From positions 57,448-121,447 of the forward strand of contig CAWESL010000003.1 of assembly GCA_963811705.1 (NCBI GenBank): 64,000 nt of DNA, given 5' to 3'. Positions 27,001 to 30,000 of the stretch are shown here, piece after piece; the first letter of the stretch is position 1, and every line of letters starts with the position of its first letter. Position numbers: made by a program. Source of the DNA: Ignavibacteriota bacterium. GTDB taxonomy: Bacteria > Bacteroidota > Ignavibacteria > UBA10030 > UBA6906.

Positions 27001-30000
27001 ATTGGCGGGTCCGTAACGAGTGCACCTGGATGCCTTGCCGGGTGTATTGTGCCAATGCCGATTGCAGTTGCGCCGAATGCTGGAAGGCACCGCAGCATCC
27101 ATCAATCCAGCAACCGATTTCCGGATGATGATATATCCGGACCGGGTAATATTTACGCCGACAGCAAGCGCGACGATGGGATCAAGGGGCTCCCATCCGA
27201 TAACCGCAACAGCGCCAAGCCCTACAAGCACTCCCGCCGAGGTCCAGACATCAGTGAAGAGATGCTGGGATGAGGCAACAAGGGCAATGGACGAGTGTCG
27301 TCGTCCGGCGCGCTGGAGGATCAGCGCCGACGGCCAAATTCAACAGCGAGGCGCCCACGGAAATGAGGAGGCCGAACTCAAGTTGATCGAGCGGTTGTGG
27401 CAACAACAGTCGTTTCACGGCTGCGACTACGATACTGATCGGCGGCGCAGATGATGAGGGATCCTTCGATGATGCTCGAAAAGTATTCTGCCTTCGAATG
27501 ACCGTACGGATGACTCTCGTCCGCCGGACGGGCGGCAATCGTAAGCATCACCAGGGCCACGATTCCGCCGATAAGATTCACGATCGACTCGACAGCATCG
27601 GAAAGCAATCCCACGGAACCGCTGACAAGGTATGCCAGGGATTTCAACGCGAGCGTGACGATCGCCGCCGCAATTGCAAGCCATGCGTAGCGTTTCAGAA
27701 ATGATCGATCCATGGTCATGATTCCTTTTTCGGCAAAAGAATTGAAGCGATTACCGAAATGACAAGGAGGCCCGCAATGACACTCAAGGCGAATCCGATG
27801 GGAAACACATACACATCGACCAGGAGCATCTTGACACCAACAAACACAAGAATCGCGGAAAGCCCGTAGTGCAAGTGATGAAATAACTGCAGGAACCCGG
27901 AGAGGGCAAAGTAGAGGGCCCGCAAACCGAGTATCGCAAAAACATTCGACGTAAAGACGATGAATGGATCGCGCGTGATTGCCAACACCGCCGGGATCGA
28001 ATCGACCGCAAAGACAACGTCTGTCGTTTCGATCACAAGAAGCACGACGAACAGCGGCGTGGCAAGAATCTTTCCGGCGTTTCGAACGAAGAACCTGCTC
28101 CCCTCATACTCCGGCGTTGTCGGCATAATGCGTCGGAAGAGCCGGAGAACCAGGTTCTTTCCCGGGTCGACATGTTTGTCCCTTGCAGTCGCCATCCTGA
28201 TGCCGGTAAAAACAAGGAACACACCAAAGACGTACATGGTCCAGTGAAAGTGTTCAATCAGTGTTACTCCCGCAGCGATGAATATGCCGCGCGTCACCAG
28301 GGCCCCGATGATTCCCCAGAAGAGCACCTTGTGCTGGTACAGCCTCGGAACTTTGAAATAGGTGAAGACCAGAAGGAAGACAAAGAGGTTATCGACGCTA
28401 AGCGATTTCTCCAGCAGATACCCCGTCAGGAATTCAAGTGCCGGCGACGGGCCGAGCGTCAGGTACACTCCGGCATTGAACAGCAGGGCCAGGACAACCC
28501 AGTACGCGCTCCATGCAAGCGCTTCCTTGATGCCGATCGTATGAGTCTTGCGGTGAAACACCCCAAGGTCCAATGCCAACATGACGATCACGAAGATGTT
28601 GAATCCGATCCACATCAAGACGGTGGTCACAACGCAATTCCTTCCTGGTTAGAATTCATGCCGGATTGCCATTCATTCACCCATTCCCTTCCGACTCAGG
28701 CGAAAGCGGCATCTCCATACTCTTCCGACTGGTCGCCGGGTATGGTCGACGGAGCCGACGCCCGATAGCGAAGCAGACATCCGACACCGCCAAGCCGATC
28801 CAACTCTTCACTCTTTTGGACGACTTCGATACTGGTTCGATGTTGTACGGCGAGTCTGACCATTTCCTCCTTCACACGGGATTCAGGGTCAAAGGACTGA
28901 GCCAGGACCAGAACATCAGCAGCGCTGGACTTGAGGGCATGCAATGTGTTTACCGTTCCGGCTACTGCCAGGCCGTCTGTCCTGATTTCTCGAACGAGTC
29001 GGTCGGCAATCTCCTGCGATTCACACTCTTCCTGTTGCACGAAGATGGCGATCGATGCCGCAAGGATTTCCTGGATATTGACCCTTCGGGAAATGTCGAC
29101 GACATCGACGAACTTCGCTGAAAGATGATGTGGGAGAGCGTTCCGGAATCGCCACGCACACTCGCCTGCCAACAGGAGATGGGTGTGTCCCCCCGCCGAC
29201 ATGACGCGATCGAGCGCTTTGACCACATCTGCGATGGAGGTGTCGTCATAAACTTCGCGACGGAGATTGTTCTGCTGCTTCGTCGACGTCTGACGAACAT
29301 GTGCATGGGCTCCCGCCTTCGTCATCCAGAATTGTTTGGTCACCTCACCGAGATCTATTTCCACGATGCGCGTCCCCTGAATGCCCATCACGGCAACCAC
29401 AAACCGATGGTAGTTGTCCTTGAGTTCCACCAGGGGATAAACGCGAGGAAGGGGACCTGCAGTGACCATATCGGGAACGGCAATCATGAATTGAAGCGCG
29501 AGAAAGAACGGGTTCCTCCCCTCGCGAGCGAAAAGCGCCAGGCTCACCCGATCATTGTCTCTCTTTTCAGCAAGATAGGCACCAATACGTTCCATCGCCC
29601 GACGAAAGTCAGGAAGTTGTTGATCCGGAAGACTCTCTTTAAGCAATGTCACTCTTCGCTTTGTGAATTCGCGCAGCTGGACGGCGTCCTGCCGAAGATT
29701 CAAGTAGACACTGACCACCGGCGCTTCTGTTTCTCCAAGTGCACTCAGCATGCGCACCTGTTCCTGTAACTCCCTGAGTTCCATAAGATGTTTTCCTTTC
29801 GCCGTTTACGCCTCTTACGGTGCCTGCCGCCGTCACCGTCAGATCATTTCAAAATCACAGAGGGCGTTTGATTGCCGGGCAAGGTGTGAACGATGACAAA
29901 TATCGTGGACAGGACGGATTGCCCCGGAGCGGGTTCAGACGACTATTTGGTCCCGACAGGTATGACCGGTCAGGAAAAGATGGGCGGATGGAAGATGGAA

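Follow-up and report, generated by a model that had tools for sequence, protein, structure and literature searches.

A stretch of 64,000 nucleotides (64 kb) from an Ignavibacteriota genome (GenBank assembly GCA_963811705.1, contig CAWESL010000003.1, positions 57,448 to 121,447 of the forward strand; hereafter the window) carries a gene for a bacterial eRF1-like (baeRF) protein of 362 amino acids, which is an unusually reduced member of the already known Pfam family 10 (baeRF_family10, PF18854) within the Balon/baeRF clade. The protein has the three-domain fold of the aeRF1 release factors, is most similar to the Balon-type factors among known structures, lacks both the GGQ and the NIKS motifs, evolves under purifying selection, and belongs to a family whose genes recur in stress, HPF and ion-transport neighbourhoods. 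From these properties taken together we consider it probable, though by no means certain, that the product is a non-catalytic ribosome-binding factor of the Balon type that serves in A-site hibernation or arrest. Public collections already contain an identical protein (P0001).

In the mechanism that we propose, this aeRF1-shaped protein would act under stress as a mimic of tRNA and occupy the A site of 70S ribosomes. Its presence there would block translation, in hibernation or arrest, and the nascent chain would not be released. The gene is probably co-expressed, and may be co-transcribed, with the downstream genes for an Alx-type TerC and an MntE-like CDF protein, and co-transcription would tie its expression to metal stress (probably manganese) or to a related envelope or ion stress. 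Binding would be simplified in comparison with Balon, the C-domain insert and most of the middle-domain loop being gone, and would probably proceed through the N and C domains and the basic residues R175 and R176, without the hairpin that contacts EF-Tu, so that fewer contacts are probably made both with EF-Tu and near the peptidyl-transferase centre. Given the erosion of the loop and the missing insert, it should not be assumed that the protein works as Balon does in detail.

The baeRF-1 clade was defined by Burroughs and Aravind, who inferred most of its families to be non-catalytic and linked to HPF (PMC6514570). A sequence-only reading of the window, made before the present analysis, described such proteins as experimentally uncharacterised, a description superseded for the clade by the ribosome structures of Balon, Rv2629 and Msmeg1130. 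These three aeRF1-like proteins, which have neither NIKS nor GGQ, were solved in 2024 in the ribosomal A site (Helena-Bueno et al., PMC10901736). Rv2629 and Msmeg1130 inhibit translation in vitro as effectively as RaiA, a P. arcticus strain deleted for Balon is affected in growth and in its recovery after a long stationary phase, and genes of the Balon type are mostly found in stress operons (PMC10901736). According to the Balon preprint, every genome with a Balon gene has RaiA as well. The characteristics that these factors share are given in the supplement to the same paper as the absence of NIKS together with an extended decoding-centre loop in the N domain (the HP motif), the absence of GGQ, and an insertion in the EF-Tu-binding C domain; in Balon this insertion is a beta-hairpin that contacts EF-Tu, and it is larger in the mycobacterial homologs (PMC10901736). 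The role of the bacterial eRF1-like proteins has been largely answered by this work, and the gene in the window is in itself no surprise.

Fold, family membership and selection

The open reading frame (ORF) that the sequence-only reading had delimited was confirmed on the minus strand (Table 1). It has an ATG start, with a plausible AGGA some 11 nucleotides 5' of the ATG. Three peptides that had been quoted from the translation are all present, HAHVRQTS at residues 160-167, LLLAGECAW at residues 203-211 and LGGVGCLLRYRAS at residues 331-343. Pfam assigns residues 113-241 to baeRF_family10 (43.3 bits against a gathering score of 27.1, E-value 5.8e-11) and residues 257-341 to eRF1_3 (PF03465, 28.0 bits against a gathering score of 25.8). 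A profile built from 30 aligned family members (A1) was used for a sequence search of the PDB and matched Rv2629 (8v9k, E-value 6.6e-10) and then MSMEG_1130 (8v9j, E-value 5.5e-9), both over their full length, followed by Pelota in the middle (M) domain (3j15, E-value 6.7e-8) and by aRF1/eRF1 in the C domain. The family profile was required for these matches; a PDB search with the single window sequence returned only chance-level matches to L7Ae and L30. In the A1 alignments GGVGCLLRY pairs with 'GGyagiLRY' of aRF1 and 'GGlaaLLRF' of Pelota, so that the correspondence to a GGxxxxLRY/F strand that had been claimed from the sequence alone is upheld.

The AlphaFold2 (AF2) model of the window protein, built with the family alignment, has three domains, a mean predicted local distance difference test (pLDDT) score of 76.9 and a predicted template-modelling (pTM) score of 0.69. 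When this model was compared with the PDB by Foldseek, the best match was Msmeg1130 (8v9j; E-value 2e-17, template-modelling (TM) score 0.68), followed by Balon of P. urativorans (8rd8; 1e-14, 0.59) and Rv2629 (8v9k; 6e-14, 0.57); aRF1/eRF1 and Pelota/Dom34 matched more weakly (TM 0.24-0.47), and the isolated C domain also matched proteins of the L7Ae fold, over 90 residues. Pfam, the profile search and Foldseek agree on a three-domain (N, M, C) protein of the eRF1/Pelota fold, and structure prediction, which had been suggested as a check for an unrelated fold, returned the claimed fold with the Balon-type factors ranked first. The N-terminal domain is modelled as helices at residues 3-14, 34-51 and 54-73 and strands at residues 23-29, 81-87, 93-99 and 106-110, with strand 23-29 falling between the first two helices; the family invariants A83, F85, R87, G89 and P92 are kept in it, and the A1 profile aligns the conserved PNxYHLVELKD (PRVYPLVELKD in the window) to GPFIHPLVEVLD of Msmeg1130. 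Neither GGQ nor NIKS was found anywhere in the 362 residues, and the lack of GGQ noted earlier for this protein holds throughout its length.

The gene is under purifying selection that is looser than on its neighbours. Compared with a 74%-identical ortholog from an Ignavibacteriota metagenome-assembled genome (MAG; loci L001 and L004), the ratio of nonsynonymous to synonymous substitution rates (dN/dS) is 0.19 overall and 0.12-0.24 per segment, and the same comparison with L001 gives 0.08 for TerC and, over its intact N-terminal stretch, 0.05 for the CDF gene; dS is about 0.7-1.2 here, which makes these ratios semi-quantitative. Ratios two to four times those of TerC and CDF could be taken to mean that the gene is a decaying or drifting paralog, losing its ribosomal function in a degenerating operon, and to this may be added the lowest loop-signature score in the family (see below), changes at the near-invariant family residues N114R, H117P, P157A and W167S, and the three frameshifts in the adjoining CDF gene. 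We regard decay as quite unlikely for a gene whose ORF is intact and of full length, whose gaps against the L001 ortholog are every one in frame, whose dN/dS is this low in each segment, and whose product has kept, in its N, M and C cores, each of the 38 residues that are invariant in the family.

The middle-domain loop and the C-domain insert

The loop at the position of the aeRF1 catalytic loop was characterized from 185 non-identical family members aligned to the family hidden Markov model (HMM). In these sequences it is highly conserved and conforms to W..RPELR.RVG..WTKEHYQ.HR......F, a signature of 17 positions with 71-98% conservation per position (W153 98%, R156 75%, P157 93%, E158 71%, L159 89%, R160 90%, R162 82%, G164 82%, W167 96%, H171 78%, Y172 84%, Q173 81%, H175 85%, R176 80% and F183 91%, with T/S168 and K/R169 completing the set). 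The window protein retains four of the 17, the lowest score among the 185, against a family mode of 16-17, a score of 7 in its nearest relative and scores of 9-15 in the wider Bacteroidota/Ignavibacteriota subclade. Preserved in it are R175 and R176, at the start of the helix that follows the loop. Residues 148-181 have pLDDT values below 50 in the AF2 model. A canonical member with all 17 signature positions (P0029) was modelled with a pTM of 0.44 and pLDDT below 50 at residues 162-178, so its loop is also of low confidence; the low-confidence stretch is 17 residues long in P0029 as compared to 34 in the window protein, and P0029 has an extra short helix.

No family member among the 185 has GGQ in the M-domain loop. 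The tripeptide does occur in 12 of them, always outside this loop, and several of these occurrences sit in the invariant hairpin of the N domain (at about window residues 87-92) within 'FARGGQxPFF', as in P0097, P0103, P0112 and P0119, where a motif-based scan could mistake them for the mark of a catalytic release factor. The sequence-only reading had placed HAHVRQTS at the site where GGQ would be expected. The string does lie in the loop, but its placement at that site is approximate: in the profile alignment based on Pelota the GGQ/GGK position falls closer to T168-K169-Q170 than to V163-R164-Q165, and HMMER aligns the loop to Pelota and Rv2629 only and not to eRF1, so that the residue equivalent to GGQ is uncertain by about three residues in either direction. 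Q165 is moreover specific to the subclade, in whose close relatives it forms part of [IV]-G-Q; elsewhere in the family the position holds R, H or S.

Family 10 has been proposed to use a loop glutamine as an active peptidyl-tRNA hydrolase, i.e., as an alternative release or rescue factor, on the strength of a conserved Gln and a constrained loop length (PMC6514570). The glutamine meant would be that of column 173, judging from the alignment, where Q stands in 150 of the 185 members (81%), N in the window protein and H in its nearest relative. The window loop does retain Q165, Q170 and Q171, and the [IV]-G-Q motif of the subclade is only about two residues out of register with GGQ; the window protein nevertheless has N173 at the position of the family Gln, has no Gly beside any loop Gln (V-R-Q, T-K-Q-Q) and has lost 13 of the 17 signature positions. 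With GGQ missing from the loop of every member as well, we think it very improbable that the protein is a hydrolase. For the family as a whole, the HMM alignment sets 'W...FQH' of Rv2629, at moderate confidence, against W167 and Y172-Q173-H. Since the same Gln aligns with a residue of a demonstrated hibernation factor, it is weak evidence for catalysis, and the alignment of both the Gln and the Trp with Rv2629 weakens the case for catalysis in the very family that was singled out as possibly catalytic.

A 38-residue Zn-ribbon insert (CxxC...CxxC) is found in the C domain of 123 of the 185 members, and 61 members, the window protein among them, carry 5-11 residues at the insert site (7 in the window protein, whose AF2 model has no hairpin there). 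A neighbour-joining tree places the window protein in a ribbonless clade of about 35 members and implies at least eight gain or loss events for the ribbon across the family. The family-10 insert occupies the position, that of the aeRF1 Zn ribbon, to which Burroughs and Aravind assigned the two-strand insert found in other baeRF families (PMC6514570); this two-strand insert presumably corresponds to the EF-Tu-contacting hairpin of Balon. Natural variants that are without the loop signature and the insert and are still under purifying selection provide ready "minimal" constructs with which to ask what features of Balon are required for ribosome binding.

Gene neighbourhoods in the window and across the family

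The features of the window that bear on this gene are listed in Table 1, together with three genes farther out.

Table 1. Coordinates of the baeRF gene, its domains and the surrounding features in the 64-kb window
Feature	Coordinates	Strand	Remarks
baeRF family-10 gene	28696..29784	-	362 amino acids plus stop, ATG start; three-domain aeRF1/Balon-like protein (ORF listing, Pfam, AF2)
N-terminal domain	29449..29784	-	residues 1-112; counterpart of the aeRF1/Balon decoding-centre domain; no NIKS
Middle domain (RNase-H-fold, aeRF1 M-like)	29065..29448	-	residues 113-240; PF18854; aligned to Pelota M domain positions 133-296
Loop at the catalytic-loop position	29236..29343	-	residues 148-183, WMTKAGAHAHVRQTSTKQQNNLRREVYDDTS; no GGQ; family-10 signature eroded
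C-terminal eRF1_3/Pelota (L7Ae-like) domain	28756..29064	-	residues 241-343, ends GGVGCLLRYR; PF03465 at 257-341; aRF1/eRF1 alignments
Zn-ribbon insert site, insert absent	28888..28893	-	between about residues 298 and 299; alignment gap
baeRF-terC spacer	28631..28695	-	65 nucleotides; no terminator-like site predicted on the minus strand
Alx-type TerC gene (metal-homeostasis membrane protein)	27716..28630	-	directly downstream of baeRF; Pfam TerC 177.5 bits
CDF cation-efflux gene, MntE-like	26810..27719	-	overlaps terC by ATGA; three 1-nucleotide indels
Cys-rich small ORF	29970..30293	-	107 amino acids; N-terminal hydrophobic segment; 185 nucleotides upstream of baeRF
Aldo-keto reductase	30779..31876		follows the PMT_2 gene; no evident link to baeRF
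PMT_2 glycosyltransferase	31836..33194		after the giant ORF; no evident link to baeRF
Giant ORF	33201..42470	-	3089 amino acids; GH94 supersandwich, GH94 catalytic and glucoamylase domains; resembles cyclic beta-1,2-glucan synthase; no evident link to baeRF

As the sequence-only reading had described, the gene lies between a TerC gene, which is downstream, and a Cys-rich ORF, which is upstream and conserved. The TerC protein belongs to the Alx subfamily (TIGR03718, 423 bits against a cutoff of 246), a subtype that NCBIfam labels 'R_switched' because a riboswitch usually controls it; between 26500 and 31000 no Rfam element, yybP-ykoY included, was found even at an E-value of up to 1, and thus no Mn riboswitch. 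In the CDF gene, a tblastn comparison with the L001 ortholog shows three frame changes, at about 27445, 27328 and 27074, none of them in a long homopolymer, and the pieces are 71-95% identical in protein sequence to that ortholog, whose best NCBIfam match is MntE (298 bits, under the cutoff of 500). The gene is either a recent pseudogene or the site of assembly errors. The order baeRF-terC-CDF is kept in the 74%-identical ortholog (L001/L004), with a similarly short spacer of 84-85 nucleotides between the called genes, and at locus L072 baeRF and terC overlap, stop codon with start codon; at the loci of a 59%-identical ortholog (L003/L007), Band_7 and Zn-ribbon genes intervene between baeRF and terC-CDF.

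The small Cys-rich ORF shares 54% identity with the ORF that L001 has in this place, matches no Pfam or NCBIfam family, and is confined to this narrow lineage among the 80 loci. It has a Cys- and acid-rich core (GDCDxSSCSxCIDxCECESEE) and a distinct C-terminus (PAILPxSxFHPPIFS), and it might encode a small protein of the same cluster that binds metal and is secreted or lies in the membrane. A scan for sigma-70 promoters gave nothing upstream of baeRF on the minus strand, and no sigma-54 consensus site occurs in 29785-30450, the window-wide count of such sites being at the level of chance. The whole 64 kb contains no tRNA genes and no Rfam families at gathering score. Genes that lie farther away, for an O-methyltransferase and for ABC and MacB transporters, have no evident link to baeRF.

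A word-indexed search gave 501 homologs, with PF18854 in nearly all of the 120 listed, and when 1.84 billion representatives were searched exhaustively, 935 clusters matched at E-values up to 1e-3 and 99 at up to 1e-30; members of family 10 are found in Ignavibacteriota, Bacteroidota, Acidobacteriota, Planctomycetota, Chloroflexota, Gemmatimonadota, Myxococcota, Desulfobacterota, Gammaproteobacteria and others. In a related lineage, the Ignavibacteriota MAG contig CAVPCZ010000016.1 (L068:6551-7195) has a family-10 homolog, 58% identical in its best segment, as a truncated ORF only, which suggests a frameshifted or decaying copy.

To survey the gene context of the orthologs, a check that the sequence-only reading had also put forward, ORFs were called at 76 non-redundant loci, and the genes up to four places away from baeRF in either direction were clustered. 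The recurrent neighbours mostly share the strand of baeRF. TerC, far from being atypical in the window, is the commonest of them, in 16 of the 76 loci and at least five phyla (Ignavibacteriota, Bacteroidota, several acidobacterial classes, KSB1 and Polyangiales). Genomes carry only a few TerC genes, and the rate of 21% is probably far above expectation, an expectation that comes from this general knowledge. Next in frequency are Usp and NtrC-type sigma-54 activators (13 loci each), the M48/HtpX protease (12), and histidine kinases and LysR (9 each). HPF/RaiA is a neighbour at seven loci, and at six of these it is directly upstream on the same strand; then come P-type ATPases (6), NhaP, CNNM/CorC, Ion_trans channels and Zn_ribbon_TFIIB (5 each), and Na/Ca exchangers, CBS, MpsC, DksA/TraR and Band_7 (4 each). 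At least one ion transporter is present at 32 of the 76 loci, and an ion-transport or stress gene at 51. At many acidobacterial loci (L025, L028, L036, L040 and L063, from Blastocatellia/Chloracidobacterium, among others) a histidine kinase and an NtrC-type activator lie two to three genes upstream on the same strand, an arrangement that suggests sigma-54-dependent control there; the window gene adjoins no comparable sigma-54 site or regulator.

That the protein is a component of conflict or anti-phage systems, targeting or protecting the ribosome, was considered in view of the patchy spread of the family across phyla and of the suggestion that baeRF-1 pathways respond to ribosome-targeting effectors (Burroughs and Aravind, PMC6514570). 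PADLOC, however, gave REase_II as its sole match, at an E-value of 0.025 and hence at chance level, the genes adjoining baeRF in the window include none for a toxin, nuclease, NTPase or mobile element, much as had been observed earlier for toxin and NTPase partners, and the recurrent neighbours of the family are housekeeping stress and ion-homeostasis genes. On the PADLOC result and the gene context we rejected this reading, to which we would give hardly any chance.

TerC and the ion transporters are absent from the list of neighbours in the Balon paper (PMC10901736), and a literature search found no paper that links TerC to ribosome hibernation. The recurrence of this neighbourhood suggests that ribosome hibernation may be linked to ion or metal stress. 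Taken further, family 10 might be a branch of Balon-like factors coupled to cation or metal stress, co-transcribed with genes for TerC/Alx, CDF, CNNM, P-type ATPases and Na+/H+ or Ca2+ exchangers, and parking translation when ion homeostasis fails; the Ignavibacteriota/Bacteroidota lineage of the window would then hold a minimal, EF-Tu-independent A-site plug, without the C-domain insert and the conserved loop near the peptidyl-transferase centre. This larger picture is speculative, and we would expect it to fall short rather than to hold.

The proposed role and its comparison with known systems

Several observations weigh against a Balon-type hibernation role. Burroughs and Aravind singled out family 10, for its conserved Gln, as possibly an active hydrolase (PMC6514570), and a role in hibernation is proposed for the family by extension from its Balon-type relatives. 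The window protein scores far under the NCBIfam equivalog cutoffs for the two mycobacterial families of such factors (NF052289, Rv2629 family RHF, 55.5 bits against 320; NF052288, MSMEG_1130 family RHF, 21.9 bits against 480). It is without the C-domain insertion, which is one of the three characteristics shared by Balon-type factors, and its middle-domain loop is more degenerate than that of any other family member, so that contacts near the peptidyl-transferase centre may be lost or altered. The 64-kb window contains neither an HPF/RaiA homolog nor a second copy of baeRF, and no promoter, sigma-54 site or riboswitch was found in it that would tie expression of the gene to a particular stress.

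Among known systems, the closest in sequence is the PF18854 family itself. The window protein is 34-74% identical to the members that were retrieved and has their domain order and invariant core residues; it differs from them in having 4 of the 17 positions of the loop signature and N173, and it is among the one-third of members that have no four-Cys Zn ribbon.

Bacteria already terminate translation with RF1 and RF2. From the aeRF1/eRF1 proteins (human eRF1, 1dt9; aRF1, 4af1) the window protein is set apart by the absence of GGQ, NIKS and the Zn ribbon and by TM scores of 0.24-0.47, although the M and C domains can be aligned (profile positions 201-378 with eRF1 222-420) and both the GGxGxxLRY C-terminal strand and an xLxAG strand are held in common.

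Pelota/Dom34 is likewise a non-catalytic member of the aeRF1 superfamily, and its M domain is the third-best profile match (3j15, E-value 6.7e-8). A Pelota/Dom34-like factor would sense stalled ribosomes or ribosomes with an empty A site and promote the splitting or recycling of subunits rather than a long hibernation. The catalytic Gln is missing from the window protein as it is from Dom34, a rescue role of this sort is one option that Burroughs and Aravind offered for baeRF-1 (PMC6514570), and the NCBIfam pelota model does match weakly; its 21.9 bits, however, are far under the equivalog cutoff of 177.65 (TIGR00111), and the TM scores for Pelota (0.24-0.44) are below those for the Balon-type factors (0.57-0.68). 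No ABCE1-, Hbs1- or HflX-like partner lies in the neighbourhood, and the partners that recur in the family are HPF, Usp and other stress genes. A non-catalytic rescue function of this kind is in our estimation unlikely.

The Balon-type factors (Balon of P. urativorans, 8rd8, 8rdv and 8rdw; Msmeg1130 of M. smegmatis, 8v9j and 8v9l; Rv2629 of M. tuberculosis, 8v9k) are the systems on which our proposal of A-site hibernation or arrest is modelled. The window protein is just 11-20% or so identical to them and lacks their C-domain insertion. Like them it is a three-domain, aeRF1-like protein of about 360 amino acids with neither NIKS nor GGQ, they are its best matches by profile and by structure, and the wider family 10 shares with them the links to HPF/RaiA and to stress operons.

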